From: a virus
Taxonomy: Duplodnaviria > Caudoviricetes
Strand: one strand, 5' to 3'
Virus record (IMG/VR): IMGVR_UViG_3300034039_000011
Location: 153 to 64,152 of that record
DNA length: 64,000 nt
Part shown: positions 24,056 to 59,486 of the stretch, in pieces
Layout of the letters: each line of letters opens with the position of its first letter
Numbering within the stretch: the stretch's first letter is position 1
Made by a program: the position numbers and the translations under genes
The notes under the pieces: generated by a model
Seen by the model: only the letters and a program-made list of their open reading frames with translations
What the model was told of the DNA's origin: nothing
Databases searched by the model: none

Positions 24056-25138
24056 ATGAAAAAAATTTTCATAACCGATTCACAATTAAAACATATTATT
24101 GAGAAAAAAAGAAATAAAAAAATTGTAATAACCGATTCTCAATTAAAATATGTTATTGAAAATTTAAAAAAGAAAAAACAAATCAATGAAGAGGTTGTTG
24201 AAGAAGGTTTAAAGGAATTTGCTCTTGCTGGGTTAATGACATTGGCTTCTCTTACCAATATTGCACAAGTAAAAGATAAAAATATCTCACAAGATAAATT
24301 GAAAGCTGCCGAATATGTTCAAAAAAGATTAGAAAAGGGTGATTTAGACGGTGATGGAGTTAAAGATTTAAAGGAATATTTTGATAAGTTACATATTGAA
24401 ATGAATGAAGATAATTTAAAAAAATTAAAAAGTGCTGATGTTGATAAACTTGTAACAATTAAAACAACTGATGAGGATAGAGCTAAAAAATTAATAGAAA
24501 AAGGATATGTTTTATCTGATGTTAAAATTGATAGAGATACAACGTTTGAAGATATTGGTGGTGGTGGATTGGTTGAAGTATCTTCTTTAATAGACATTTC
24601 TAATGATGGGTTTAAAACTGGTTCTTATGAGCTTTCAGAAAAGACTAAACAAGAACTTGATAGTATTATAAAAAATGTTAAAGAACTTAATGGGGAAATA
24701 AATAATTTATATATAGAATCTTCTACTGATAAAGAACCAATTAAAATAGGAAACGAAAAATTGGCTAAATTAAGAGCAAATGCAGTTAAAGATTATATAT
24801 TAAATTCTGGAGTTAAAGTTAATAATATTGAAATTAAAACTTTACCTGAACAAGGTCCAGACATTTATACCAAAACAATGAGTAAAGAAGAACGTGAGCA
24901 AGCAAGGAAAGAAACTAAAAAATATAGATATGTTAAAGTAAATATGGATTTTTCATATAATGTTGCAAATATAGGTCCAGAGAAAAAAATTAAAGATGTT
25001 GTAGAAAAAGCCACTTTTTATCTAATTAAAAAATCGGAACATAAACCAGAAATTAAAAAAGACAATGTTAAAATAAAAATTAAAAACTGTAAAATTAAAA
25101 CAAAAACTGGTAAAGATATACCTTGTCCAGTATTCTAA
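24056..25138 (+). CDS. OmpA-like peptidoglycan-binding domain protein with duplicated N-terminal ITDSQLK motif
   Basis: FKTGSYELS...IESSTD...NEKLAKLRANAVKDYI...RYV matches the OmpA C-terminal domain. Confidence 0.7.
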   Translation: MKKIFITDSQLKHIIEKKRNKKIVITDSQLKYVIENLKKKKQINEEVVEEGLKEFALAGLMTLASLTNIAQVKDKNISQDKLKAAEYVQKRLEKGDLDGDGVKDLKEYFDKLHIEMNEDNLKKLKSADVDKLVTIKTTDEDRAKKLIEKGYVLSDVKIDRDTTFEDIGGGGLVEVSSLIDISNDGFKTGSYELSEKTKQELDSIIKNVKELNGEINNLYIESSTDKEPIKIGNEKLAKLRANAVKDYILNSGVKVNNIEIKTLPEQGPDIYTKTMSKEEREQARKETKKYRYVKVNMDFSYNVANIGPEKKIKDVVEKATFYLIKKSEHKPEIKKDNVKIKIKNCKIKTKTGKDIPCPVF

Positions 25139-33573: not shown

Positions 33574-33867
33574 TTATAAACTAATTATTGAAAAACCTAT
33601 ATAATGTTTTATTAAAACTGTATCACCAATATTAAATTTTGAATATAAACCAAAAGAAACTTTCATTTCAGAACCATCACTAAAAGCAAATTTGTGAACA
33701 GGTTCTCTATTATAAAAATAAATTGTCTCTTTATTAATAATAACCTCTTTAGTTATGGTATAAGATGATTCTTGTTTGCAAGATAAGATATTTAAGTATA
33801 ATAAAATAAAAATATAAATAAAAATTTTAATATAAATAAATGTTTTAATATATTTCATTGTTAACAT
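33574..33867 (-). CDS. Hypothetical membrane protein or lipoprotein
   Basis: Hydrophobic N-terminus ending ILSC (lipobox-like). Confidence 0.5.
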   Translation of the reverse strand: MLTMKYIKTFIYIKIFIYIFILLYLNILSCKQESSYTITKEVIINKETIYFYNREPVHKFAFSDGSEMKVSFGLYSKFNIGDTVLIKHYIGFSIISL

Positions 33868-36213: not shown

Positions 36214-36615
36214 CTAACCTTGTGATAAGATATACTGACGTATTGTTTCTGGTGATGCTTCACCTATTGAACAGACAAAATAACCATCACTCCATAAGAG
36301 ACGCTGATACCAATAATATTGACGTAATGTAGTATGATGTAACAGCCATAACTGACGAGTAGATTCTTGTTTTAACCTACGGACTAATTGAGAAACAGAT
36401 ATACGTGGTATATACCTAATTAAGAAATGTACGTGATTAATGTCGCTTTCCATAACTTCAATTTCAAAATCTGAATTATCAGCTATGGAACTGAATATAT
36501 CTTTTAAATCATCATTTAACTGACCGACTAAGATATTTCTACGATACTTGGTTACTAAGATTAAATGACATTTTAAGTAATGTTTTGAACGATTTGTACT
36601 GATGTAGTGAGACAT
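36214..36615 (-). CDS. tnpA: IS200-type Y1 HUH transposase
   Basis: HLILVTKYRR, HVHFL, LWSDGYF, IRQYI..Q. Confidence 0.95.
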   Translation of the reverse strand: MSHYISTNRSKHYLKCHLILVTKYRRNILVGQLNDDLKDIFSSIADNSDFEIEVMESDINHVHFLIRYIPRISVSQLVRRLKQESTRQLWLLHHTTLRQYYWYQRLLWSDGYFVCSIGEASPETIRQYILSQG

Positions 36616-36740
36616 ATTGTGGAAGTTTTTTACCCGAAGACGGAAACTTTTACAATATGTTGAACGGCATTTTACAGAAAAAATAAAAAAACTTTAAAAT
36701 GAAAGCAACTTTTTGTATATTTGTACGTATTTAATAATAT

Positions 36741-37913
36741 ATGTTGAAGTCATTTAAATATAGAATTTCACCTACGAAGGCACAAGCCGAACTAATCAAT
36801 AAGCATATTGGTAGTTCAAGGTTTGTGTATAACCTTGCGTTGGAGACCAAAACAATGGCTTACGCTGGTAATCAAATAAACCTATCTTGTTTTGACCTAA
36901 TCAAACAATTGCCAGATTTAAAGAAAGAATGTACTTGGTTAAAAGAAATTAATTCTCAATCATTACAAGCACCAATAAGAAATTTGGATAATGCTTTCAC
37001 AAGATTTTACAAAGGACAAGGGAACTTTCCTAAATATAAATCTAAAAGAAGCGGTAAACAATCATTCCATATCCCACAAAATGTAATTGTAGAGAATGGG
37101 AAGTTAATCATTCCTAAATTTAAAGAGGGAATTGATATTGTATTACATAGAGAAACCAAAGGTGTAATTAAATCAGCAACTATATCAAGAACACCAACAG
37201 GTAAATACTTTGTTTCTATTCTTTGTGATACTAAAGAAGAAATACCAACTAAAGCATCAATAACCGAAAGTACGACTATTGGTATCGACTTAGGAATTAA
37301 AGACTTTGCAATTACATCAAAAGGTGAAGTTTTTGAAAATCCAAAATACCTACGTAAAGCACAAAGTAAATTAAAATATGTACAACGTAAATATTCAAAA
37401 CACAAAGGTAAGCGTACTAAAAAGAAACTTGCCAAACTACACGAAGATGTAGTAAACAAGCGCAAAGATTTTTTACACAAAGTTTCAACTAAACTAATTC
37501 GTGAGAACCAAACGATAGCACTTGAAACTCTAGCTGTAAAGAATATTGTTAAAAACCACAATTTAGCACAATCTATTAGTGATGCAAGTTGGTCAACTTT
37601 TGTCTCTATGTTAGAATACAAGGCTGAATGGTATGGTAAAAATATCCTACGAATAGGGCGATTTGCACCATCATCAAAGACTTGCTCCTGCGGAGTAATC
37701 AACAAGGACTTAAAACTATCCGACAGAGAGTGGACTTGTAAGTCTTGTGGAACTACACACGATAGAGATATTTTAGCTGCTTGTAACATAAAATCTTTTG
37801 CCTTAAAAAATATCTTATCTGGAACGGATAGGAAAAATCAGGACGAACTGCCCACGTTGGTGGGAGTGTTGACTCCTGAAGCCCAACCCATCGCCTCTGG
37901 CGTGGGTGGGTAG
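36741..37913 (+). CDS. tnpB: TnpB RNA-guided nuclease
   Basis: RFVYN, GIDLG, IALETL, SSKTCSCG...CKSCG, HDRD..AACNI. Confidence 0.95.
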   Translation: MLKSFKYRISPTKAQAELINKHIGSSRFVYNLALETKTMAYAGNQINLSCFDLIKQLPDLKKECTWLKEINSQSLQAPIRNLDNAFTRFYKGQGNFPKYKSKRSGKQSFHIPQNVIVENGKLIIPKFKEGIDIVLHRETKGVIKSATISRTPTGKYFVSILCDTKEEIPTKASITESTTIGIDLGIKDFAITSKGEVFENPKYLRKAQSKLKYVQRKYSKHKGKRTKKKLAKLHEDVVNKRKDFLHKVSTKLIRENQTIALETLAVKNIVKNHNLAQSISDASWSTFVSMLEYKAEWYGKNILRIGRFAPSSKTCSCGVINKDLKLSDREWTCKSCGTTHDRDILAACNIKSFALKNILSGTDRKNQDELPTLVGVLTPEAQPIASGVGG

Positions 37914-37925
37914 TTCACATTTTTT

Positions 37926-38561
37926 TTAATTCCAGAAACCGTTTTTTTTCATATACCCCAGACAACAAGTATATGCATCACTCATATCAAAGTTTTCCTT
38001 TTTTAATTCACCTTTTTTGTTATAAATCCATTGAATATCATTTTCCTTTTCATTAACTTTCTCCCAAATTATTTTTTTCTTATCAACATTTTTATCATAT
38101 GCACCAAATAAGGTAGGTTTTATTTTATCAATATTTTTTTTCTTATTACCATTTGAATCATATATTCTTTTCCCCATTAGTTCAGGAAATGCATATTTTC
38201 TTGAATCGTATGATGATATAAAATCTGGTATTACTCCAGTATAATCATAACACGATTTTGATATTAATGAATTAAATCTTAATAATAAGCCAACGGTATT
38301 TATATTGTTTGATCTTAATAATGGTTCTTCTATTATTATTTTTTCAAAATCAAGATCAACGAATTTAACTAAAAATTGATTTTCAAAAATTTCTACTTTT
38401 CTAAATAATTCTTCAAGTTTATTTTCTGGTTTAGGTTTTACAATTAATTTAACATGTTTTAATAATATTAGTTTTCCTTCATTTCCAAGATTTTCAAAAA
38501 CTGCAACACCAATTGTGCTGGTTGAAACATCAAGTCCCATTATATACTTTTTTTTATCCAT
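37926..38561 (-). CDS. RuvC-like Holliday junction resolvase
   Basis: MGLDVSTSTIG, IIIEEP, DMSDAY. Confidence 0.75.
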   Translation of the reverse strand: MDKKKYIMGLDVSTSTIGVAVFENLGNEGKLILLKHVKLIVKPKPENKLEELFRKVEIFENQFLVKFVDLDFEKIIIEEPLLRSNNINTVGLLLRFNSLISKSCYDYTGVIPDFISSYDSRKYAFPELMGKRIYDSNGNKKKNIDKIKPTLFGAYDKNVDKKKIIWEKVNEKENDIQWIYNKKGELKKENFDMSDAYTCCLGYMKKNGFWN

Positions 38562-38565
38562 TTCT

Positions 38566-39615
38566 TTAATAAATAACTTCTTTAAATGTGATTATTTTAT
38601 TATCATATATAAATGTGAATATATACAAACCAACATTAAGTTTAAATGTAAATTTATCTATGTTTATATTTGATTTTATAATTAATTTACCGCTAATATC
38701 ATAAACATAAAGAATGTAATTAACATCATTATTGGTTGTAATTTCAACAAATGAGTTCTTTTTTTTTATATTAAAAATAACATCATCATTATCTTTTTTA
38801 TTAAATTTAAATGTTGTTAATTTATTAATATCACCATTAACATCTTTTTCATATAAAACATAATAATTTAAACCGTTTTTTATATTATAATCATTAAAAT
38901 AATATTTATTTAATGTTCGTTTTTTTGGCGTTATTGTCCCATAATTAACTAAACCATTTATAAATTTATATATGTAATATTTTTCTATTGAACTTTCATC
39001 TGATGTTGAAAAATATAATGTTAAATAATCGCCATTATCATAAATTTCTTTTTCCAATATTTTTGTTGGTAATGGAAAGTCATATGTAATACATATTTCA
39101 ATATAATCTATACATAATACATTATTATTTAAATTTGATTCAAATTTAACTTTTAAACCAAAATTTGAATCATTTACATCAGAAGGTGTCAATGAAAGTG
39201 AATTATCAGTATAAATTGTAGTATCATCAATACCATTATTTCCAATTATTGAACAACCACTTTCTTTTATTCCATTAATACCATTATTATATAATCGTAT
39301 TTCTGATTTTTTACAACCATTATTTAATAACCAATAACCTTCTATTAATATATCTATGTTTGTTATGATTGCATTATTTGGGATTGAAAAATTAAATCCA
39401 ACAAAATAACCATCTATCTTTTCCTTTTTATTTAATACTATACAATTATAATCATTGTCTGATGATGACAGGTTGTTACCTTGAGATGCTAATGAATTGT
39501 TAAAATCTATGCCTTTATTCTTAATATATATTGTTGGACTTGAACATACCACATTTTGAGAAAAACCATAAATGGATATAAATAATAATAATTGAATTAT
39601 AAAAATTCTAATCAT
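38566..39615 (-). CDS. Secreted protein with signal peptide and T9SS type-A C-terminal sorting domain
   Basis: MIRIFIIQLLLFISIYGFS|Q signal peptide; PLP linker plus Ig-like domain (KYYFND..IKNGLNYYVL...DVNG); CTD VYDISGKLI...LNVGLYIF...TFKEVI. Confidence 0.75.
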   Translation of the reverse strand: MIRIFIIQLLLFISIYGFSQNVVCSSPTIYIKNKGIDFNNSLASQGNNLSSSDNDYNCIVLNKKEKIDGYFVGFNFSIPNNAIITNIDILIEGYWLLNNGCKKSEIRLYNNGINGIKESGCSIIGNNGIDDTTIYTDNSLSLTPSDVNDSNFGLKVKFESNLNNNVLCIDYIEICITYDFPLPTKILEKEIYDNGDYLTLYFSTSDESSIEKYYIYKFINGLVNYGTITPKKRTLNKYYFNDYNIKNGLNYYVLYEKDVNGDINKLTTFKFNKKDNDDVIFNIKKKNSFVEITTNNDVNYILYVYDISGKLIIKSNINIDKFTFKLNVGLYIFTFIYDNKIITFKEVIY

Positions 39616-40802
39616 AGAACCAGTTTTATAGTAAAATAAATAAAGTCAAGTTTTGTTTTTTTAATTGGTTCACTAACTCTCCCAACTGCAATTACATTAT
39701 CTTTTTCATCCAACAAATATATTGAAGTTATATAAGTATATTCATTTTCATTATATGTTGGATTTAATGAGGTATTAAAAGAATTTTGTTCTATTCTTAT
39801 CGGTATAATGCATTCAACAGCAGATTCATAAGATGTTAATACTCCATTATGAGATGTACTTGATAAATTTAAATCGCTAACAATTGTCTGGTCTGTTATA
39901 ACAACCAAACCGCTTAATAAATCCACATATCCTACAGGTTTATCTCTAACAATTCCTGAATTTGGAACATCTATATAATTATATAATGGTTTACCATGTT
40001 TTGAGTATGGATATATTTTGCCATATCCATCTCCCCATGATTTTGTAGGATCATTGTTTGGTGGTTGAATTTCATCTGAAAATAATAAAATTTTATATTC
40101 ACCTAAAGCATTAACAACATTGTTAGAATCGTCATATAATTTATTGTCTAATAATTTACGTCTGGTAAGGTTGTTTTGAAGTGTCCCATATAATGTATAC
40201 GTATTTAAATTTCCAAATAATTCTAATTTAATTTCACTACCCGATATAATATTTCCAAACTTACTATCATCTATAGATATTACAATAACATTATCAACAT
40301 TCAAAAATTCTAATGCTGTATTATAATAACCACCACGTTTATAATCTAATATATAATAACTTTTTTGATTATCTGTCAATGGAAAATTTAAATATTGTAA
40401 AATACCAATATATTGGTTTGAAGTATTTGTTCTGTCAATTGATAAAAAAGAAAAATCTGAATTTGATAATGTTTGTGTAGGTATTTTTTTGTTTGTTTGA
40501 GATATTTTTATATCTTCTTCATTTAATTCTTGATAATATTTATCATCTTTATATTTTAAAATACTTTTGGGTATCTTATAATCATAAGCTGAATTATTGC
40601 TTATATTACCAACAAAATCTAATTTTCCAGATATTGATGGGACATACCCATTAGGTAATACTAAATCTGATGAATAATCAATTCCTTCATCAGATACTGC
40701 AAATTTTTTAATATCATTAATTGTATTACTTAACAAAAAATCTCTACCATATGAGGTAAGTCTTGTAACAATTGTTTTAGGTGGTTCTGTTATAAATCCC
40801 AT
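39612..40802 (-). CDS. Baseplate/tail-collar-type structural protein
   Basis: RLTSYGR...FAVSDEGIDY N-terminus and ITSIYLLDEKDNVIAVGRVSEPIKK C-terminus; paralogous termini to the next gene. Confidence 0.55.
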   Translation of the reverse strand: MGFITEPPKTIVTRLTSYGRDFLLSNTINDIKKFAVSDEGIDYSSDLVLPNGYVPSISGKLDFVGNISNNSAYDYKIPKSILKYKDDKYYQELNEEDIKISQTNKKIPTQTLSNSDFSFLSIDRTNTSNQYIGILQYLNFPLTDNQKSYYILDYKRGGYYNTALEFLNVDNVIVISIDDSKFGNIISGSEIKLELFGNLNTYTLYGTLQNNLTRRKLLDNKLYDDSNNVVNALGEYKILLFSDEIQPPNNDPTKSWGDGYGKIYPYSKHGKPLYNYIDVPNSGIVRDKPVGYVDLLSGLVVITDQTIVSDLNLSSTSHNGVLTSYESAVECIIPIRIEQNSFNTSLNPTYNENEYTYITSIYLLDEKDNVIAVGRVSEPIKKTKLDFIYFTIKLVL

Positions 40803-40812
40803 AATATTTAAT

Positions 40813-42924
40813 TTAAAAATCTATTGATAATTCAACCATTATTGTACTACCTGGTTCTAATTCTATTGGTTTACTTGTTTTACCCAACAGAACTAAATTT
40901 TGTTCATCATCATAAATACCAATTTCACTAACTCTAATATTAGTATCTAAATCACTTGACCATGTTTTATTTGTCGTTGCAATAAATTTATCTGAATTAA
41001 TTCTTATATCAAAAATACTTTTAAAAATTGTAGCTCCAATATGAGTATTTATATTACCATAAAATATTCTTTCATCACCAAATTGCAATCTTTCAGGTTC
41101 TGTTAATAATGGCAAATCAAATAAATTAAACAAATTATATGTTGTAGCAGATAAATCAACCGTAGAATCAATAATAAAACCGTTTACTGTCGGGTCTTGA
41201 ACTTCAATCAAATTCGGATCAATTGTTTCATTTGCATTAACTGTTATTCCTGTTGATGTGAAATCTGCAACCTTCCATGAAGAAGGATCTGGTCTATCAT
41301 TTTCATCATCAACAATCTGATATAAAATTTTAAATTTATCTGCATAAAACCCAAGCCCATCATATGTTGGATATTCAATCTTTCTCATATATGGGAATAA
41401 CTCCAAATCTTCAAAAGTAAATAACACATCTCTTGATGTTGATGTTTTATTGGTAATTTTTGTATAATATTGACAATGTAATGGTGTAGTATGTCCACTA
41501 GACATGGTATTTTCAAAGATATATGTTAAATACATTGTTTTATTTTGTTCTAAAACTCCAGTTGATGTTGGAGATGATAGATTTGCTTTCAATGGCGGTA
41601 ATGTCCAATTTCTATTACTTTTATATGACATTGCCATAACAATTTCATCATCATCAATTACCACAAATTTTAATTTATTAAATACTTTACCAACAACTTT
41701 TGGTTCTTTATTTGGATCTATAAAATTCGGATTTTCAATTAAATCATAATATTCAATATTAGTATTTTCTATTGTTTTTACATCACCAGTAGATATAAAA
41801 TACATACCCATTTCATCCCCTGTTCCGTTACCACCAGAAAAATATCTTCTATGATACATTATTGTAGGTAAATACAATTCAAAATGTTTATTATTATCAT
41901 GGTCAATATTAAAATATTCACCATATACATTAGACAACAAATTATTGGTATAATGAATAATAGATATACTTTTTCGTACAGGGTCTATAATACTTTCACC
42001 ATCACATTTAGGAGATGTGTCTATAAATGTATCAAAACAATTATAATTTAAAAATGGATATTTTTCGCCTAAATATTGATAAGAACCAAAATATTCATAA
42101 TTTTCATGAGTGTTACCTGAATATCCTGCTAAATCTTCACACCATATATTATTCATGTTCCATATTGGAATATCCTTACAAGTTACTTCGGATATGGCGT
42201 CAAAAGATAATGTTCCACTATCCCAATAAGCAGTTGTGTCTCCACTATATATTGTTGAATAAAAATCGTTAGGATATAAATGATATTCCACATCAACACT
42301 TTCACCAGATAAATTAGGAAATGCCCTATCAACTTCTATTGTGTTTCCAGTAATACCTTCTATTTTATACCATAATGTTGGTGTGGGAGTAGTTGCATCT
42401 AATGGTTGTAATAATCCTGCTGTATCGTTTGTAAATCTTATTAAGATATAATCATTAACATTTGCATTACCATTAAACCCAGAATAAATTTTAGTACCGG
42501 TAAACCCAGAAGCTGGTAATATTCCATACTCCATTTCATAAGACGAACCACTTAATATATTCCAACCACTTGTAGTGTCCCCAGTAAAAAAACCTCTTTC
42601 TTTAGCTTTGTTACTAACAACTAATTTTAATGTTTTAAATTCATCAGTACCTATTTCATTAAAAGGATTTAAAGAGCTATTCCCATCATATACATAAGAT
42701 ACGAAATCATTGTTATCATCAACTGGTCTTAATAATTTTGTAGTTGCAGATAATGTAACATCAGATGTGTTGTTTTCTACTAAAAATTCTCTTTCATAAT
42801 TTATTTCAGAATCTCCAATAGCCCAATATTTAAAGTTTAAATTTCCAGATGCGATTCTTTCTCTACCCTTTTCTGTTAACTTTGTGCTAATATATGGGTC
42901 TGAATTGTTTATTATAAATGACAT
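40813..42924 (-). CDS. Baseplate/tail-collar-type structural protein
   Basis: KLTEKGRERIASG...WAIGDSEINY and VSEIGIYDDEQNLVLLGKTSKPI. Confidence 0.6.
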   Translation of the reverse strand: MSFIINNSDPYISTKLTEKGRERIASGNLNFKYWAIGDSEINYEREFLVENNTSDVTLSATTKLLRPVDDNNDFVSYVYDGNSSLNPFNEIGTDEFKTLKLVVSNKAKERGFFTGDTTSGWNILSGSSYEMEYGILPASGFTGTKIYSGFNGNANVNDYILIRFTNDTAGLLQPLDATTPTPTLWYKIEGITGNTIEVDRAFPNLSGESVDVEYHLYPNDFYSTIYSGDTTAYWDSGTLSFDAISEVTCKDIPIWNMNNIWCEDLAGYSGNTHENYEYFGSYQYLGEKYPFLNYNCFDTFIDTSPKCDGESIIDPVRKSISIIHYTNNLLSNVYGEYFNIDHDNNKHFELYLPTIMYHRRYFSGGNGTGDEMGMYFISTGDVKTIENTNIEYYDLIENPNFIDPNKEPKVVGKVFNKLKFVVIDDDEIVMAMSYKSNRNWTLPPLKANLSSPTSTGVLEQNKTMYLTYIFENTMSSGHTTPLHCQYYTKITNKTSTSRDVLFTFEDLELFPYMRKIEYPTYDGLGFYADKFKILYQIVDDENDRPDPSSWKVADFTSTGITVNANETIDPNLIEVQDPTVNGFIIDSTVDLSATTYNLFNLFDLPLLTEPERLQFGDERIFYGNINTHIGATIFKSIFDIRINSDKFIATTNKTWSSDLDTNIRVSEIGIYDDEQNLVLLGKTSKPIELEPGSTIMVELSIDF

Positions 42925-53782: not shown

Positions 53783-55479
53783 ATTTCACTGCTTTTATTT
53801 ACTTTAAATTTATCACTTAATACATATCCTCTTGGATCAGATGGAAACTCATCTGAATATAACCCATATAATCCATTAGGGTCTTGTCTTTTTAATAATA
53901 AACATATTTTTTTATGTATATAATGCCTTCCATTTATAAATGGGTAATCTAATGGTTTATTGCTAGTGTCAGATATACCTAAATCTAATAAATCTCTCCA
54001 TAACCATCTACCATCTCCCAAGTCCTCAGCATAATCAGGTATTCCATATGTAGATTCATCACCTTGTTCCACATAATTTGAAAATTCTCTAATTTTAATT
54101 AAATGATGAGGTTTATAATAATATCCTTCATATCTTGGTGATACAGTAATTGAGCTTTCAGCACCTGTAAGATCAGTAATAGTTCCACCAAGTATTCTAT
54201 TATTTGTGTTAAATCTATGCATAACTTCAGCCAAAACAGTTTCTTTAACCTCAAACCTGTTATATTCTACAATATCACCAAAAAAGTGTGTGTTACTTAT
54301 ATCTACATTTGTTTCTAATGACACATGTGGAATTGGTGATGAACCATTATGTATTCTATGTATATCAGGTATTATATTTGGAAAATTTATCATTGATGGT
54401 ATATATGGTGCTTCAATACCAGATTTTATTTCCGTAAACATATCACCATTACCATCATTAAAATTACTTCTTTTTTTTATGAATGTAAAATATAATTCTG
54501 AAATTGGTCTGTTTAAATTATCTCTTATATTAGCTAAATCAATATCATAATTTAATAAAAAATGATAATTTACATCATTAAAAATATTTTTTGAAAAAGA
54601 TAATTTATTTATTAAAAATTTATCAGTATCAACATATCCGTTAACTATTGGTATTTTTTTAAACATTCTGGCATAATATGTTGATTCCTCACCTCTAAAA
54701 ATTCTAACCATTCTTGAGTTGTTTGATATTTCACCACCTTCCATCTCAATTGAAAAGAAATAATCACTAAGTTCATTTTTTTCATTTCCTATTTTAAAAA
54801 CAGTATAAATACCATCTTTACTATTATCAAGTAAATTTTTCAATCTCACAGTATCTCCAGGTAATAAATTATGTTTTATTGGCGTTGCAAATTGATATAC
54901 TGTTTTCCCACCTATCTCTAATTGTGTTGATTCAATAATTATTATTCCACCATCAATTAAATCAATTGTTTTGTTATAATCGGGATATGTGATAGCCAAA
55001 TCCCAATTTGTTGGATTTATTTCAAAATGATTTCTAGATGGATACATGTCGTTCCATTTACAACCATCTGTTGATCCTATGTTTGGGTCTAGATAACCAA
55101 ACCACCCATCAACTTCTTTTAAATTTTGTTCTATTGCTTCTTTATAAGTAATATCTTCTTCCTCATCAAAATCAACTGTATTTGGTGGGTATGACCTATC
55201 CCTAAAATAGGGATTAACCATAAAAGTCTCAAAACTATTATCACCAGTAATGTTCATTAAACAATTTGAAAATATTGTTGTTACATCAAAAGTAAACCTA
55301 TATTTATATGATTCTTGTCTTTCTTTATTAAATTGTTCACTTTGACTTATTATTTTATTAATTTCAGAATATGGTAATAATTTTGATTTTGAAGATAATA
55401 TAATTTTGTTCTTTTTGCTTATATCACTTTTTTCCTTTGATTTTGAACTTTCAAATATGTATTTAAATTTATTTTCCAT
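53776..55479 (-). CDS. Hypothetical protein in the baseplate cluster
   Basis: 567 aa, translationally coupled. Confidence 0.7.
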   Translation of the reverse strand: MENKFKYIFESSKSKEKSDISKKNKIILSSKSKLLPYSEINKIISQSEQFNKERQESYKYRFTFDVTTIFSNCLMNITGDNSFETFMVNPYFRDRSYPPNTVDFDEEEDITYKEAIEQNLKEVDGWFGYLDPNIGSTDGCKWNDMYPSRNHFEINPTNWDLAITYPDYNKTIDLIDGGIIIIESTQLEIGGKTVYQFATPIKHNLLPGDTVRLKNLLDNSKDGIYTVFKIGNEKNELSDYFFSIEMEGGEISNNSRMVRIFRGEESTYYARMFKKIPIVNGYVDTDKFLINKLSFSKNIFNDVNYHFLLNYDIDLANIRDNLNRPISELYFTFIKKRSNFNDGNGDMFTEIKSGIEAPYIPSMINFPNIIPDIHRIHNGSSPIPHVSLETNVDISNTHFFGDIVEYNRFEVKETVLAEVMHRFNTNNRILGGTITDLTGAESSITVSPRYEGYYYKPHHLIKIREFSNYVEQGDESTYGIPDYAEDLGDGRWLWRDLLDLGISDTSNKPLDYPFINGRHYIHKKICLLLKRQDPNGLYGLYSDEFPSDPRGYVLSDKFKVNKSSEIC

Positions 55480-58400
55480 TATACAATTATACTTACTGTT
55501 TCTGAACAGCCGTTATTATCAGTTACTTCTACAGTATAAGTTCCGATTGAATTTGGTGTATATGTATCACTACCACCAGAATAAATGTTTTTACTATATA
55601 CTTGATTATTACTACTGTCATATATTTTTACCACATACGGTGCTTGTCCACCACTTGGGGATATTGTTATATCTCCACTACTAGTAGTAACACCTGGAGA
55701 TATTGGACCAGGTTCATTTATTGGTATTGTAGCATAGATTTCACATCCATTATCATCTGTTATTGTAATTTCATATTCACCTGGTTCCAAATTATCAAAT
55801 ACTACAGGACTTCCATTAAATGTTTCGGTTTGACCAAAATCAAACACAATTGTATATGGTGGAACTCCTCCTGTTATATTACTTATTGTTATTGTACCAT
55901 CATTATTACCATAACAGGTTACATCTGTAAATGTAATAGTAGGAGAAATTTGTTGTGGTTCTGATATGTTTACTGTTTGAGTTACTGTTTGATTTAAAGA
56001 ATCTGTTGCTGTTATTGTATATGTTCCACCTTCTAAATCATATAAATTTGTATTTGAACTTGAAAAACCATTTGGTCCAGTTATAGACCAAGTTATAGGT
56101 GGATTACCACTTGTATAATCTAAATAAATTTCACCATCATTAGCTCCATAACACGTTATATCTGTTTTTTGGACATCAATAATCAATTCATCAGGTTCTA
56201 TTATTGTAACTAATGCTGGAGAACATTTTACAGAATTATTATTAACATCATAAATATTTACTTCATAATTTCCTGCTGGTAAATTAGTGAATGTATAAGA
56301 ATTACTATTTGAAACTGTAGTAGTATTTATTATGTTACCATTATTATAATCTTTTAATTCTAATGTATATGGTCCACCATCACCACCACTAATATCTGTA
56401 ACAATTATTTTTCCATCATTTAAACCATGTTTGCTTATATTAACTGGAGTTAAAAAACAATATAATGGTAGCCCACCATTTATATAATAAGAATATGTAA
56501 ATACCTTACCATCACTTGTAATTATTTTTAAAACATAAGTACCTTCACATAAATTTGATATATTTTGTGAAGTTGATGTAAACCCACCAGGTCCTTCCCA
56601 TGAAATATCATAAGAACCTGAACTATATATAATTTCTAATGAAATTGAACCATCACAAGAAGTTGATGAAGTTGCATGATTTATATCTGCATTAACAGTT
56701 ATATTGGTTTTATTTTGACTCTTACAATCATTAAAATATTTTTCTTTCATTAAATCCAATGCACTTTTTCCTGGTCTTAAACCGAAATAAAAATAAAATG
56801 AATTTGATGGTTGATTTATAATACCTATTTTAACACCTCTGTATAATTCATAAGCAACAGAATTAAACAATGCATGTTTATTGCTATCAGTAAAGTTTAA
56901 TAAATCAATGCCTGAATTTGGTTCATTAAGTAATGCAAAATAATCTCTAATCAATAAATCATCAACATCACAATTATCAATAACTCTATCTATGCCCATA
57001 CTTCCATTACACCCTAATTTTGGTGGTTCGTCTGTTCTATCTTCATCAAGACCTACACCAATTTCACAAATTCTTTTAATATTCTCACAGGTTCTTGCAT
57101 TTGTTTCAATACCTGTACATGTTAAATTAAAAAACAAGGAATCTGCTATATCATTGCTTGCTGAATCATAACCACTAACTATAACTTTATTGCCATCATA
57201 TTCATCTAATAAATCAGGTGTTTTATATGATGTTATATTTAATCTGTCATGTATTTTTAATATATTTTGCCAATCACAATCATACATACTACCTAATATA
57301 ACTAAATCAGTAGCTAATAATTTATAATTATCATTATGTGATATTGGTGAATAATATAAAGTATCGTTATGTTTATTTATTAGTCCATCTCTTATTAAAT
57401 CGCTTAAATTTGAATCCGCACCATCTGATGTACAAGTGTCAACTAAATAATTATTTCTACATTTATTATCTCCTATGTTATCATTATTACCATCTACACC
57501 ATCACCATAATCACTACAATTATTTTCACAAAACTTTTCTTTACCCTTTTTATTTTTCTTATACTTGAATAAAGGAAAATATAATACCCCATTTACCCAA
57601 TCATTATAAAAATCAAATTTCCACACATCTAAAATTTCTGCTAATTGTATTGATAAACAAAATGCCCATCCAGCGTCTTTTTTGGGAGACGTTTCATTTG
57701 CACCATGTCCTGGATGTCCATCATCAGGATAATGTTGTGGTTTGTCGTCTGTATTTCTGTATGGGGATATTTTATCCGAACTCTTTTCACATCCTGGACC
57801 ATAAGTTTCATCATTACATTTTACTATAATACACCCTATATAATCAATATAATCTTTATTACAATCACAATCACATGAATTGTTACCACCACAATCACAA
57901 TTAGCATCTCCTATACAAGCCTTTTTTTTACAATTGCATTTTTTACTACCACTTTTAATTGAACAAGCAAGTTTACCAATGAACCATATTACTTTACAAA
58001 TTACTTTTAATATATCATTTATAACTTTAAAAACAGAGTTTATTATTTTAAAGATAACAGAATTTAAAAAGACAATAATAAATGATATTATCTGTATTAT
58101 AATACAAAGTATTAAAAACAATGGGTTTAATTTTGAATCTATCCTATTAAACGGAAATGGATTTGCTGTTCCTACACAATCATCAACATCTTTTATACCA
58201 ATAAAAGTTCTTTTATTATGACCTGATGTGGCTTGAAATCTTGGTATAAAATTTTTAACAGTATATATTTTATTCCAATATAAATCTCTAAAATTTTCTT
58301 CTTTTGTTTCTTCATTAAAATTGTAATCAACATCATTTATGGTATTAGGATTATGTGGAACTAAATAAGATGCTCTTGTTCTTAATCTACCATCACCACC

Positions 58401-59486
58401 ATCCATATCCAAACCAACTTTAAATCTAACCTTTGCCCTTGTAGGTATTCCCTTATTCGGCGATTCACTTGGAACTAATTCACCAAATTCATTTGTTACC
58501 ATATAATCCAAATTCATTGGAACTTGGAAAGCCCAAACACCATCATCATTTATAACCCTTCCACCATCTATTGATATTTCTTCAACACCACCATCAACAG
58601 TTTTTCTTAAAATATTTATACTTCCAGGTGTAGTGGTCATATCACATATATAACCTGTTTTTTTTCTTGGTCTGCACCTTTTATTTACTGAATTTTTATG
58701 ACTATCTGTTATTGCAGAACCAATAAATAAAGCACTTGGTTGTATTTTTATTTTTGTATCGAAATCAATTCTTGTTATACCGATTTCACAATTTGATTTA
58801 TCACCCCAAAAAGGAATTACATTTACAGAAGTTATATTTGATTTGAATTGAGGTAATGTCAATAATTCTTTTGAGCTTTTAAATTGAGTTGTACCTTCAA
58901 AAATTTCTTTTGGTGAACCTTCCCTTATTAAATCATAAGGTCTTTGAGAATAAATTCCAATATCTGATATGTCAACGTTAAAAACAATATTATGTTCCCC
59001 TACAGGAACACCAAATATCATAAAATCACCAGCTTCATTTGTTACGGAAGTATATTTATAATATTTACAATATACATCAGAATATTTATCAACATCCAAA
59101 ATCTCTCTTTTATCGGGGAATGAGCCTATTGGAGTATGACATTCAAATTTTTGATTTTTTGGTAACAAATTATATATGATTCCATCATCATTCTTATCTA
59201 AAGGGGTTTCATATGGATAAAGTTCTTTTATTTCATCATCCAAATCATCATATTCAGATGCCTTTACAAATATAGAAACTTTTGCATTAGGAACACCAAC
59301 ACCACCATTCATTATCACCCTACCAACTACAACACCATAATCTGAACAAAACCTTCTATAAGCCTCATTTTGAGAAATATTAAGAGATAAAATTTGTATA
59401 AAATCAAAATCTTGTTCAATATTTACTCTAATACTAGAACTTTTAAAACTATTTGGTGTTGTTCTTATTCTTATGGTTTTGTCCAT
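55479..59486 (-). CDS. Large baseplate-cluster protein: carboxypeptidase-regulatory-like domain, hydrophobic helix, Cys-rich region and C-terminal SprB repeats
   Basis: GVVVGRV..GVPNAKVS...TNEAGDFMIFGVPVG; PLFLILCIIIQIISFIIVFL; TDITCYGANDG, TDVTCYGNNDG..GGVPPY, NLxxGxY.VT.TD.NGC. Confidence 0.7.
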   Translation of the reverse strand: MDKTIRIRTTPNSFKSSSIRVNIEQDFDFIQILSLNISQNEAYRRFCSDYGVVVGRVIMNGGVGVPNAKVSIFVKASEYDDLDDEIKELYPYETPLDKNDDGIIYNLLPKNQKFECHTPIGSFPDKREILDVDKYSDVYCKYYKYTSVTNEAGDFMIFGVPVGEHNIVFNVDISDIGIYSQRPYDLIREGSPKEIFEGTTQFKSSKELLTLPQFKSNITSVNVIPFWGDKSNCEIGITRIDFDTKIKIQPSALFIGSAITDSHKNSVNKRCRPRKKTGYICDMTTTPGSINILRKTVDGGVEEISIDGGRVINDDGVWAFQVPMNLDYMVTNEFGELVPSESPNKGIPTRAKVRFKVGLDMDGGDGRLRTRASYLVPHNPNTINDVDYNFNEETKEENFRDLYWNKIYTVKNFIPRFQATSGHNKRTFIGIKDVDDCVGTANPFPFNRIDSKLNPLFLILCIIIQIISFIIVFLNSVIFKIINSVFKVINDILKVICKVIWFIGKLACSIKSGSKKCNCKKKACIGDANCDCGGNNSCDCDCNKDYIDYIGCIIVKCNDETYGPGCEKSSDKISPYRNTDDKPQHYPDDGHPGHGANETSPKKDAGWAFCLSIQLAEILDVWKFDFYNDWVNGVLYFPLFKYKKNKKGKEKFCENNCSDYGDGVDGNNDNIGDNKCRNNYLVDTCTSDGADSNLSDLIRDGLINKHNDTLYYSPISHNDNYKLLATDLVILGSMYDCDWQNILKIHDRLNITSYKTPDLLDEYDGNKVIVSGYDSASNDIADSLFFNLTCTGIETNARTCENIKRICEIGVGLDEDRTDEPPKLGCNGSMGIDRVIDNCDVDDLLIRDYFALLNEPNSGIDLLNFTDSNKHALFNSVAYELYRGVKIGIINQPSNSFYFYFGLRPGKSALDLMKEKYFNDCKSQNKTNITVNADINHATSSTSCDGSISLEIIYSSGSYDISWEGPGGFTSTSQNISNLCEGTYVLKIITSDGKVFTYSYYINGGLPLYCFLTPVNISKHGLNDGKIIVTDISGGDGGPYTLELKDYNNGNIINTTTVSNSNSYTFTNLPAGNYEVNIYDVNNNSVKCSPALVTIIEPDELIIDVQKTDITCYGANDGEIYLDYTSGNPPITWSITGPNGFSSSNTNLYDLEGGTYTITATDSLNQTVTQTVNISEPQQISPTITFTDVTCYGNNDGTITISNITGGVPPYTIVFDFGQTETFNGSPVVFDNLEPGEYEITITDDNGCEIYATIPINEPGPISPGVTTSSGDITISPSGGQAPYVVKIYDSSNNQVYSKNIYSGGSDTYTPNSIGTYTVEVTDNNGCSETVSIIV

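Follow-up and report, generated by a model that had tools for sequence, protein, structure and literature searches.

The locus lies within a 64,000-nucleotide stretch of DNA (hereafter, the window) taken from an IMG/VR virus fragment with a CheckV completeness of 16%. On the minus strand, positions 38,566 to 39,615 hold an open reading frame (ORF) that is present exactly as described in the original prediction and encodes 349 aa. [quoted passage not shown] The gene, the parts of its product and the two neighboring genes are the following:

38566..39615, minus strand: cargo-like gene, complete CDS of 349 aa plus TAA stop (ORF listing).
39559..39615, minus strand: predicted signal peptide, Sec/SPI-type, residues 1–19, with predicted cleavage between GFS and Q (hydropathy screen).
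39079..39555, minus strand: N-terminal passenger, residues 21–179, jelly-roll-like beta-sandwich (modelled strands, profile).
38797..39072, minus strand: middle Ig/Fn3-like domain, residues 182–273, beginning with "PLP" (alignment A1, profile).
38569..38778, minus strand: CTD, residues 280–349, predicted to be a divergent T9SS type-A sorting domain (TIGR04183, model).
39612..40802, minus strand: upstream 396-aa gene, the last gene of a conserved tail/baseplate block (homologues in 5/5 loci).
37926..38561, minus strand: downstream RuvC-like resolvase gene (phrog_159 at 3.5e-8).

The start of the cargo gene shares the nucleotides ATGA with the stop (TGA) of the upstream 396-aa gene, and the RuvC-like gene begins 4 nt past the stop of the cargo gene. 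An overlap with the last baseplate gene had been claimed; the overlap itself is real, and "baseplate" is a label that the upstream gene, which has no family match, carries by position. The gene had also been described as being as AT-rich as the phage, in agreement with its GC content of 0.197, its GC3 of 0.094 and a codon usage that correlates with that of the phage core genes at r = 0.93. The identical 349-aa protein is present on three contigs. Phage genes accompanying it include a tail sheath gene (phrog_23 at 2.6e-59), a baseplate wedge gene (phrog_6 at 2e-19) and genes for PolB and for SNF2 and DnaB-like helicases, and this gene content marks the window as part of the genome of an uncultured jumbo myovirus. 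Judging from sequence comparisons, this myovirus most likely infects a Bacteroidota host. One of its tail proteins carries SprB repeats (59 bits), the named phages nearest to its baseplate wedge are Flavobacterium phages, and among its nearest TnpB relatives the best 15 loci include 9 with Bacteroidota labels and 5 with Saccharibacteria labels. The latter were not counted as pointing to a CPR host, because a 184.7-kb contig of one Saccharibacteria-labelled MAG encodes a tail-sheath homologue (E 3.8e-55) and the label is therefore probably that of a mis-binned large phage.

In five related phage loci from IMG/VR, homologues of the 396-aa gene (29–32% identity) and of the RuvC-like gene (55–57% identity) are present without exception, and in all five the RuvC-like gene follows 56–65 nt after the 396-aa homologue with nothing between the two. 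The proposed check of whether related phages have an orthologue at this locus came out negative (0/5); no domain of the cargo protein was found in the five related loci, and TIGR04183 has no match in any of the five related phage records. Because the flanking genes are adjacent in 5/5 related phage fragments, we regard the cargo gene as a lineage-specific insertion and, because none of these fragments has a TIGR04183 match, as dispensable for the phage group. Lying between conserved flanking genes here and absent from that place in relatives, it is an accessory gene of the type called "moron." A tblastn search of 50,697 phage records returned no phage relatives of the protein, scans of IMG/VR with P0001, P0007 and P0152 as queries found nothing, and no RNA run holding the sequence was found among the public runs listed.

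Homologues of the protein number 220 representatives at E ≤ 1e-3 (phmmer), many of them 350–390 aa long and aligned over residues 5–345. Members of this ~360-aa family are laid out as signal peptide, beta-sandwich, Ig-like domain and CTD, and the cargo protein is homologous to them end to end, with the parts in the same order. Among 60 family members of the same length, 43 match TIGR04183 and 33 match PF18962 (E ≤ 0.001); of 401 Bacteroidota genomes sampled, 3 contain a full-length member. These three cellular homologues have a GC content of 0.44–0.49, compared with 20% for the phage gene, and adjoin housekeeping-type genes, as judged from the translations of their neighbors. A word-indexed search of 5.8 billion proteins returned only the cargo protein itself. 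When metagenomes were scanned for DNA encoding the nearest relatives, P0007 as query gave no match, and P0152 gave only AT-rich contigs of 1.5–2 kb (GC 0.28–0.29), on which none of the genes beside the matches resembles anything in the window. One family member is labelled Wolfebacteria.

The N-terminus reads MIRIFIIQLLLFISIYGFS followed by QNVV, with a predicted cleavage site between GFS and Gln20, and scores H10 = 3.15 by a hydropathy heuristic. In a simple hydropathy screen, signal-peptide-like N-termini are found in 2 of the 49 ORFs of the window, the cargo gene included, and the N-terminus is therefore no by-product of AT-rich composition. The same feature recurs in the family, 56 of 60 members being signal-peptide-like and 50 of these 56 having a small residue followed by Q, so that the Sec signal peptide claimed to end in GFS before Q is borne out both by hydropathy and by the pattern in its signal-peptide-bearing relatives. 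A Gln at position +1 corresponds to the Bacteroidota "Q-rule," as stated in PMC5837995.

An AlphaFold2 model built with 60 homologues (alignment A1; pLDDT 86.2) has three all-beta domains (residues 21–179, 186–273 and 282–348), among which both the beta-rich passenger and the Ig-like domain that had been predicted can be seen. The "PLP linker" (residues 181–183) of the same prediction had to be given up; it is no linker and instead forms the start of a middle-domain motif, "LPV.L..F," whose residues L182 and P183 reach at least 90% conservation across the family (alignment A1). Per-domain profiles were built without the query, with 500 shuffles as control: the N-terminal passenger scores 97.5 bits (shuffle maximum 8.3, n = 500) and the middle domain 35.0 bits (shuffle maximum 10.7, n = 500). 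The pair formed by the middle domain and the CTD is found in 165 of the 401 Bacteroidota genomes, on many differing passengers; the N-domain alone gives two weak matches in these genomes, both to giant proteins.

The passenger (residues 21–179) matches no Pfam family and has no catalytic signature, and a Foldseek search of the PDB with the whole model returned generic jelly-roll and Fn3 arrays (CtXyl5A, MAM-Ig-FN) and no functional lead. Because a catalytic signature is absent and the N-domain adjoins adhesin-type modules in other proteins, the most likely role of the passenger is binding, by which it would change the surface of infected cells or of their debris. Its N-domain profile matches no other ORF in the window or in the related loci (best 2.4 and 7.7 bits). 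Receptor masking by way of a shared receptor-binding domain is not supported, the passenger being absent from the phage's own tail proteins, and one easy argument for receptor masking thereby falls.

For the C-terminus, a type-A sorting domain had been claimed from its sequence features, and HMM searches with TIGR04183 and PF18962 had been named as a check. The NCBIfam model TIGR04183 matches residues 287–346 at 24.0 bits (E 2.7e-5; cut-off 23), and a six-frame search of the record with this model gives 26.8 bits, the sole match above the cut-off there. The check failed with the Pfam model PF18962 (Por_Secre_tail), against which the CTD alone scores 14.5 bits (E 0.046), short of the gathering score of 27, and the whole protein has no match at E ≤ 1. 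Against the query-free family profile, the CTD scores 24.2 bits, with a shuffle maximum of 6.8 (n = 500). In the model, whose block-mean pLDDT is 80–96 from residue 281 on, the CTD has seven strands (residues 282–286, 289–293, 300–305, 311–317, 321–325, 329–337 and 340–348), the last of which stops one residue before the C-terminus at residue 349. Type-A CTDs are defined in PMC11285876 as 70–100 residues at the extreme C-terminus that form a seven-strand (3+4) beta-sandwich, and the cargo CTD agrees with this in size, in C-terminal position and in its seven modelled strands. The same paper describes two conserved residues as relevant to secretion in P. gingivalis, a glycine at the beta3-beta4 loop and a lysine of the last strand. 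In the cargo protein, the motif YDISG(309)KLI directly precedes strand 311–317, Gly309 is at least 90% conserved in alignment A1, and K345 lies within strand 340–348; by alignment and position, Gly309 and Lys345 fit the secretion motifs as given in PMC11285876. The model also matches the RgpB CTD (7pq4) at a TMt of 0.60 in Foldseek, and the family profile matches solved CTDs (8glk_D, "Endonuclease I," at 1.5e-10; 8glj_D; mirolase 8qb1; and RgpB 5hfs). With the CTD alone as query, a sequence search of solved structures gave chance-level matches only and no solved CTD, and the "PNP" with which the CTD begins in most family members (alignment A1) is missing. The TIGR04183 match, the seven-strand model, Gly309 and Lys345 uphold the assignment, and the CTD can be read from its sequence and model as a T9SS type-A sorting domain, which we call divergent because the TIGR04183 margin is 1 bit, PF18962 failed, "PNP" is missing and no solved CTD is found by sequence.

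The central claim, that a phage gene here encodes a T9SS type-A cargo protein, thus has computational support from the phage context, the full-length family homology and the seven-strand CTD. Gene, architecture, family membership, phage context and insertion were computed directly; from here on we infer an export route, a timing of expression and a purpose (receptor masking, exclusion, adhesion or altered gliding). We consider it probable that this phage accessory gene is read with the late genes and that the host T9SS secretes or displays its product. The ancestors of the gene would belong to a cellular family whose members are small T9SS type-A cargo proteins, and the gene would have resided in AT-rich phage DNA long enough to acquire phage codon usage. 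Its transcription would be part of that of the late tail genes, and the ATGA overlap would couple its translation to that of the last tail gene; the precursor would be exported by Sec, cleaved by signal peptidase I before Gln20 and folded in the periplasm, where the C-terminal beta-sandwich would be recognized by the host T9SS, which may then either release the two-domain passenger or leave it anchored to the outside of the infected cell.

It is doubtful, by comparison, that the protein is exported by Sec and is no working T9SS substrate, staying in the periplasm or outer membrane as a binding protein there or as a decoy that clogs the T9SS, whether because the CTD has drifted too far, because the host T9SS is mismatched or because the host has no T9SS. 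The PF18962 score (14.5 vs. 27 bits), a TIGR04183 score just 1 bit over the cut-off and the missing "PNP" start would all fit such a protein, as would the species specificity of CTDs, which according to PMC11285876 are not freely interchangeable between species. Against it, none of the seven strands has been lost from the CTD, which also retains the glycine of the loop and the lysine of the last strand and stands well apart from shuffled sequences on the query-free profile (24.2 vs. at most 6.8 bits), and the ORF has stayed intact at 20% GC, where stops arise easily.

A more specific proposal, which we hold to be unlikely, is that the protein is made late and planted by the T9SS on the dying cell and its debris, where a lectin-like domain would cover the receptor or a T9SS-delivered structure such as the gliding adhesins. 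Progeny would then not be lost on debris and rival phages would be excluded. Phage T5 Llp, a small lipoprotein that acts on FhuA, is a Sec-exported envelope protein that, like similar phage surface proteins, blocks the receptor, and it provides a functional model for such surface covering, which could protect infected cells as well as progeny against adsorption; unlike Llp, the cargo protein has no lipobox and its predicted route is another secretion system. If true, the protein would be the equivalent of Llp for the T9SS route, and an exclusion system that rides on type IX secretion would be seen for the first time.

That the protein belongs to the virion or is accessory to the tail, for instance as a decoration or an added receptor-binding part, with the N-terminus uncleaved and the C-terminal beta-sandwich merely an Ig-like structural domain, seems quite unlikely. 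The gene lies at the end of the tail/baseplate block, with translational coupling to the last gene there, the matches of the whole model in BFVD include tail and structural proteins of phages (e.g., a "Tail protein" of Methanobacterium virus Drs3, TMq 0.48), a structure-based lead in the ESM Atlas is a phage protein whose cluster carries SPP1_Dit, and the phage's own 1335-aa SprB-repeat protein has a weakly CTD-like C-terminus (16.9 and 14.6 bits) with no signal peptide. The likeness of the cargo protein to tail proteins is at the level of fold only, however, with neither a structural family match (no PHROG match at E ≤ 0.1) nor conservation of the gene with the structural module, as it is absent from 5/5 relatives that have the whole tail block. 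The proteins to which it is related are cellular and secreted, and carry a signal peptide, Gln+1 and a CTD; a cleavable Sec signal removes a protein from the cytoplasm, the site of virion assembly.

An assembly chimera or decaying, functionless host DNA, to which the occurrence of the gene in this phage only among its relatives and the IS200/IS605 element 650 bp away (a sign that the region accepts foreign DNA) might point, is highly improbable in view of 349 intact codons with three recognizable domains, neighbors joined within 4 nt on both sides, and a phage-like GC3 (0.094) and codon usage (r = 0.93), unlike those of the IS200/IS605 element (r = 0.59–0.73). Both junctions are bridged by short contigs from public runs of two studies (at the stop end, X1 record 2 and X3 record 18; at the start end, X2 record 12). 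Because codon usage matches the phage and public contigs bridge both junctions, misassembly is unlikely, and the assignment to the phage withstands the host-derived misassembly that had been named as its possible refutation.

T9SS-delivered surface proteins underlie gliding, polymer degradation and virulence in Bacteroidota, and flavobacteria that resist phages often turn out to be mutants in gliding or in the T9SS. By sending cargo of its own through the T9SS, a phage can alter the cell that it infects at its surface, with possible consequences for adsorption, the exclusion of other phages and particle attachment. We know of no phage for which the CTDs have so far been shown to function in the host T9SS, and the present protein, small (~330 aa when mature) and tractable, lends itself to asking whether they do. 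With cellular Bacteroidota type-A cargo it shares a signal peptide with Gln+1, a passenger, an Ig-like domain and a terminal seven-strand CTD of ~70 aa; it differs in being phage-encoded, in having a CTD that is below the Pfam cut-off and lacks PNP, and in a GC content of 20% versus 44–49%.

Phage T9SS cargo was reportedly published earlier, by de Jonge in 2019. Phage-encoded T9SS cargo is in any case already known, and the present gene is a further example and no new principle, adding a clean case in which the passenger is non-enzymatic, the insertion point is dated and the source family is cellular. According to Bellas et al. (2020, Nat Commun, PMC7468147), "Cryophage" carries three T9SS type-A cargo genes; an endoglucanase and a GH39 glycoside hydrolase are the products of two of them, and one of the three has a binding-type passenger (PA14). 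Cryophage too is an uncultured phage with a Bacteroidota-type host and variable accessory genes bearing type-A sorting domains, and for it too use of the host T9SS to place phage-chosen proteins on or outside the cell has been proposed; compared by description, our case differs in its uncharacterized beta-sandwich and Ig-like passenger, in the jumbo myovirus that carries it and in the insertion at the end of the tail module. Huge phages encode sortase B substrate modules and outer-membrane proteins, according to a preprint (bioRxiv 10.64898/2026.10.24.761521). There too, large phages encode proteins whose host export and sorting signals suggest surface display, in that case by a sortase and a cell-wall sorting signal or as beta-barrels; "type IX" is absent from the available portion of the preprint. 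A literature search for "huge phages" together with "type IX secretion" found no co-mention.

Two unannotated ORFs in published huge-phage genomes, one of 369 aa in LR756500.1 and one of 329 aa in LR756504.1, resemble the cargo gene in size and in encoding a signal peptide (a small residue, then Q), the same middle domain and a type-A CTD, and differ from it in N-terminal passengers that have no match to family residues 1–180. With TIGR04183, the 329-aa ORF scores 18.7 bits, below the cut-off (the 31.4-bit match in that record is to another ORF), and the 369-aa ORF scores 37.1 bits, above it.

The window takes in the whole of a 64,152-base IMG/VR virus record except for 152 bases; CheckV puts the completeness of that record at 16%, suggesting a full genome of several hundred kilobases. 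[quoted passage not shown]

38566-39615, minus strand: cargo gene, an intact ORF of 349 aa from ATG to TAA

It overlaps the preceding 396-aa gene, whose stop codon and the cargo ATG share an ATGA; at the other end, a RuvC-like resolvase gene begins 4 nt after the TAA. The protein begins with MIRIFIIQLLLFISIYGFS|QNVV, in which a single basic residue, a hydrophobic core ~15 residues long, and a Gln preceded by a small residue can be recognized. Both the ORF with its export features and the proposed Sec signal peptide ahead of Gln were borne out, the latter as a prediction of a simple hydropathy screen in which 2 of the 49 window ORFs, the cargo ORF included, have a signal-peptide-like N terminus; because there are only two, AT-rich composition does not explain this N terminus. 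The other is a 97-aa ORF (33574-33867, minus strand) whose signal end, ...LNILSC|KQESS, resembles a lipoprotein signal (lipobox) and which, judged by its sequence, may encode another envelope protein of the phage.

The C-terminal sorting domain (CTD) of the original prediction passed one family check and failed the other. NCBIfam TIGR04183 (cut-off 23 bits) matches residues 287-346 of the cargo protein at 24.0 bits, and across all six frames of the complete record its sole match above cut-off scores 26.8 bits, whereas Pfam PF18962 (gathering score 27 bits) has no match in the whole cargo protein and reaches 14.5 bits against the CTD alone. Together with a sequence search of solved CTDs with the query CTD alone, which found none, the narrow pass and the miss mark the CTD as divergent, and support for it as a T9SS sorting domain is stronger from its family than from direct HMM matches. 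Against a profile of the CTD columns from 58 relatives, with the query left out, it scores 24.2 bits (maximum of 500 shuffles, 6.8 bits), and the family profile in turn matches the solved sorting domains 8glk_D (1.5e-10), 8glj_D (5e-9), and mirolase 8qb1 (1.5e-3). Foldseek matches the cargo model to the RgpB CTD (7pq4; TMt 0.60), with PorU at rank 19 among the structure matches. A glycine in the beta3-beta4 loop and a C-terminal strand with a conserved lysine are described as relevant to CTD secretion (PMC11285876); the query has both residues, Gly309 (YDISGKLI) immediately preceding strand 4 and Lys345 within its final strand. The 'PNP' that opens the CTD in most relatives in the 60-member alignment is absent from the query, as might be expected under the best-surviving rival reading, in which the protein is exported yet not T9SS-competent, or acts as a decoy.

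From the single sequence, AlphaFold2 gave a model of low overall pLDDT (51.8), poor everywhere but in the last 70 residues; with an alignment of 60 homologs, pLDDT rose to 86.2 (pTM 0.65), and three all-beta domains were resolved (residues 21-179, 186-273, and 282-348), the last with seven strands. The supposed 'PLP linker' is no linker: it opens 'LPV.L..F', a motif conserved in the middle domain, with L182 and P183 at least 90% conserved among the 60 relatives. Against family profiles built without the query, the N domain scores 97.5 bits and the middle domain 35.0 bits (maxima of 500 shuffles, 8.3 and 10.7 bits, respectively). Structure-based leads for the passenger include a Bacteroidota hypothetical protein (TM 0.82) and phage proteins, one of them from a cluster with a Dit domain. 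None of the ten larger relatives scanned for domains carries an enzyme domain; their other domains are thrombospondin repeats, VWA, Ig-like, SpaA-like, Gly_rich_2, and T9SS CTDs. From these data we infer that the passenger is a binding module.

An exhaustive phmmer search of 1.84 billion representatives returned 220 proteins at E <= 1e-3, of which 13 pass E <= 1e-10; many of the 220 are 350-390 aa long and align over their full length. Among the matches listed, the closest is 44% identical to the query over residues 10-263, and one family member is labeled Wolfebacteria. In the family alignment (60 proteins of similar length picked from the best 150 of the 220), TIGR04183 matches 43 and PF18962 matches 33 (E <= 0.001), and 56 have a signal-peptide-like N terminus, followed in 50 of these by a small residue and then Gln, the pattern of the 'Q-rule' described as specific to Bacteroidota (PMC5837995). 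The family profile was also run against a sample of Bacteroidota genomes (n = 401) centered on a Flavobacterium MAG, and 165 have a match at E <= 1e-25. Nearly all of the best 150 matches (there were 481 further ones) span only profile positions ~189-367 (i.e., the middle domain and CTD), with which ORFs of 250-3583 aa terminate, so these two domains together are a common tail module of T9SS cargo. Matches to the N domain alone are rare and weak (2 of 401 genomes). Full-length matches occur in at least three genomes (ORFs of 399, 384, and 360 aa; GC 0.44-0.49), with neighbors that, read by eye from translations, are of housekeeping type (RNase H-like, thiolase-like, and succinyl-CoA synthetase-like).

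The tail block recurs in five IMG/VR fragments, with protein identities of 29-63%, and in all five the gene order is 298-, 1098-, 948-, 610-, 703-, and 396-aa homologs followed by the RuvC-like gene. An ortholog of the cargo gene at this locus, for which the original prediction proposed a search, is found in none of them: the 396-aa homolog and the RuvC-like gene are only 56-65 nt apart, the N, middle, and CTD domains are absent from all five loci (best scores 7.7, 6.7, and 8.5 bits), and TIGR04183 matches nowhere in the five records, each of which covers part of a genome. The cargo gene is therefore a lineage-specific insertion and, given its phage-like GC3 (0.094) and codon usage (r = 0.93 versus phage core genes, themselves at 0.91-0.96), not a recent one. 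Just past the RuvC-like gene lies an IS200/IS605-type element (36214-37913), whose genes we take, from their translations, to be tnpA and tnpB:

36214-36615, minus strand: tnpA of the IS200/IS605-type element
36741-37913, plus strand: tnpB of the IS200/IS605-type element

The element is foreign in composition (GC 0.32-0.34, GC3 0.24-0.26, codon usage r = 0.59-0.73) and absent from all five related loci.

That the cargo gene is an artifact or relic is the weakest rival, since the ORF is intact and short contigs from public sequencing runs bridge both its stop-end junction (X1 record 2, 38062-39004; X3 record 18, 38528-38852) and its start-end junction (X2 record 12, 39471-39772), although the runs come from two studies, one possibly of the source sample, so that this support is not fully independent. 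The public runs listed include no RNA run. In one X3 contig (depth 4.1) one base is missing at window position 38548, at the start of the RuvC-like gene, which may be an assembly error.

Other genes of the phage are listed here:

window: tail sheath (phrog_23, 2.6e-59)
window: family-B DNA polymerase, SNF2 helicase, and DnaB-like helicase
window: baseplate wedge protein (phrog_6, 2e-19)
window: tail-fiber-like proteins

Several hints point to a Bacteroidota host: the Q-rule signal peptide of the cargo protein, a tail protein with SprB repeats (59 bits), a wedge protein whose top matches come from an uncultured huge phage (28%) and from Flavobacterium phage immuto (27.7%), and the 15 best genome loci for the TnpB (62-85% identity), of which nine are labeled Bacteroidota, five Saccharibacteria, and one Hyphomicrobium. 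A relative of the TnpB at 85% identity lies in a Flavobacterium MAG. A 184.7-kb contig (G010:C1, with loci L019 and L030) of a MAG labeled 'Candidatus Saccharibacteria' has two TnpB copies (70% and 44% identity) and a tail-sheath homolog (35% identity, E 3.8e-55); the contig probably belongs to a large phage that was grouped with a CPR genome in binning. The Wolfebacteria label of one family member leaves a small doubt about a Bacteroidota host.

Taken as a prediction from sequence and modeling, the core reading of a phage-encoded T9SS cargo is supported. The gene would most likely be transcribed together with the late tail genes; its product would cross the inner membrane via Sec, be cleaved ahead of Gln20, fold in the periplasm, and reach the host T9SS through its CTD, for secretion or anchoring at the surface. 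The phage might keep it to alter adhesion, mask a receptor, exclude other phages, or shield progeny from debris. A profile search of the window and related loci found the N domain in none of the phage's own tail proteins, leaving masking via receptor-binding-domain mimicry without sequence support. A less likely rival makes the protein a virion accessory protein, a reading with which its place beside tail genes and the lead from a Dit-domain cluster would agree.

As T9SS cargo, the gene joins known phage-encoded type-A cargo, a principle already in print: three variable genes of 'Cryophage' have type-A sorting domains (Bellas et al. 2020), T9SS sorting-domain proteins are noted on crAss-BACON phage contigs (de Jonge et al. 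2019; PMC6949934), and P. gingivalis prophage genes obeying the Q-rule are noted as well (PMC10367356). In a 2026 preprint that does not mention type IX, surface display is the reading given to huge-phage sortase-B substrates and outer-membrane proteins. Literature searches pairing 'huge phages' with 'type IX secretion', or Por_Secre_tail with 'phage', returned no paper on the subject. BFVD holds an entry 'Secretion system C-terminal sorting domain' from 'uncultured Caudovirales phage', and two published, unannotated huge-phage genomes encode similar ORFs:

L009 3449-4558: 369-aa ORF of LR756500.1
L010 3551-4540: 329-aa ORF of LR756504.1

Like the cargo protein, both start with a signal peptide that closes with a small residue and Q, and both share its middle domain and a type-A CTD region, but their passengers are unrelated to its own. 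The 369-aa ORF exceeds the TIGR04183 cut-off (37.1 bits) and the 329-aa ORF falls short of it (18.7 bits); another ORF of LR756504.1 reaches 31.4 bits, also above cut-off. Three particulars make the cargo gene useful: its insertion site is dated, its source family is cellular and has no known function, and its CTD, though divergent, is full-length.

The 396-aa (39612-40802, minus strand) and 703-aa (40813-42924, minus strand) proteins, both kept in all five related phages, have no meaningful Pfam, NCBIfam, or PHROG family match; they look alike at both ends by eye and may be paralogs. Right after the tail sheath gene, a 360-aa protein (24056-25138, plus strand) has an OmpA-family peptidoglycan-binding domain (PF00691, 51.4 bits) and, in the hydropathy screen, no signal-peptide-like N terminus; OmpA-like proteins of huge phages are discussed in the 2026 preprint mentioned above. 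The SprB repeats (59 bits) belong to a 1335-aa protein of the structural block (55479-59486, minus strand) that also has Ig-like domains, lacks a signal peptide, and contains a long hydrophobic stretch at ~residues 450-510, odd in a tail protein; its extreme C terminus weakly resembles a T9SS CTD, below cut-off (TIGR04183, 16.9 bits; family CTD profile, 14.6 bits over residues 1269-1334).
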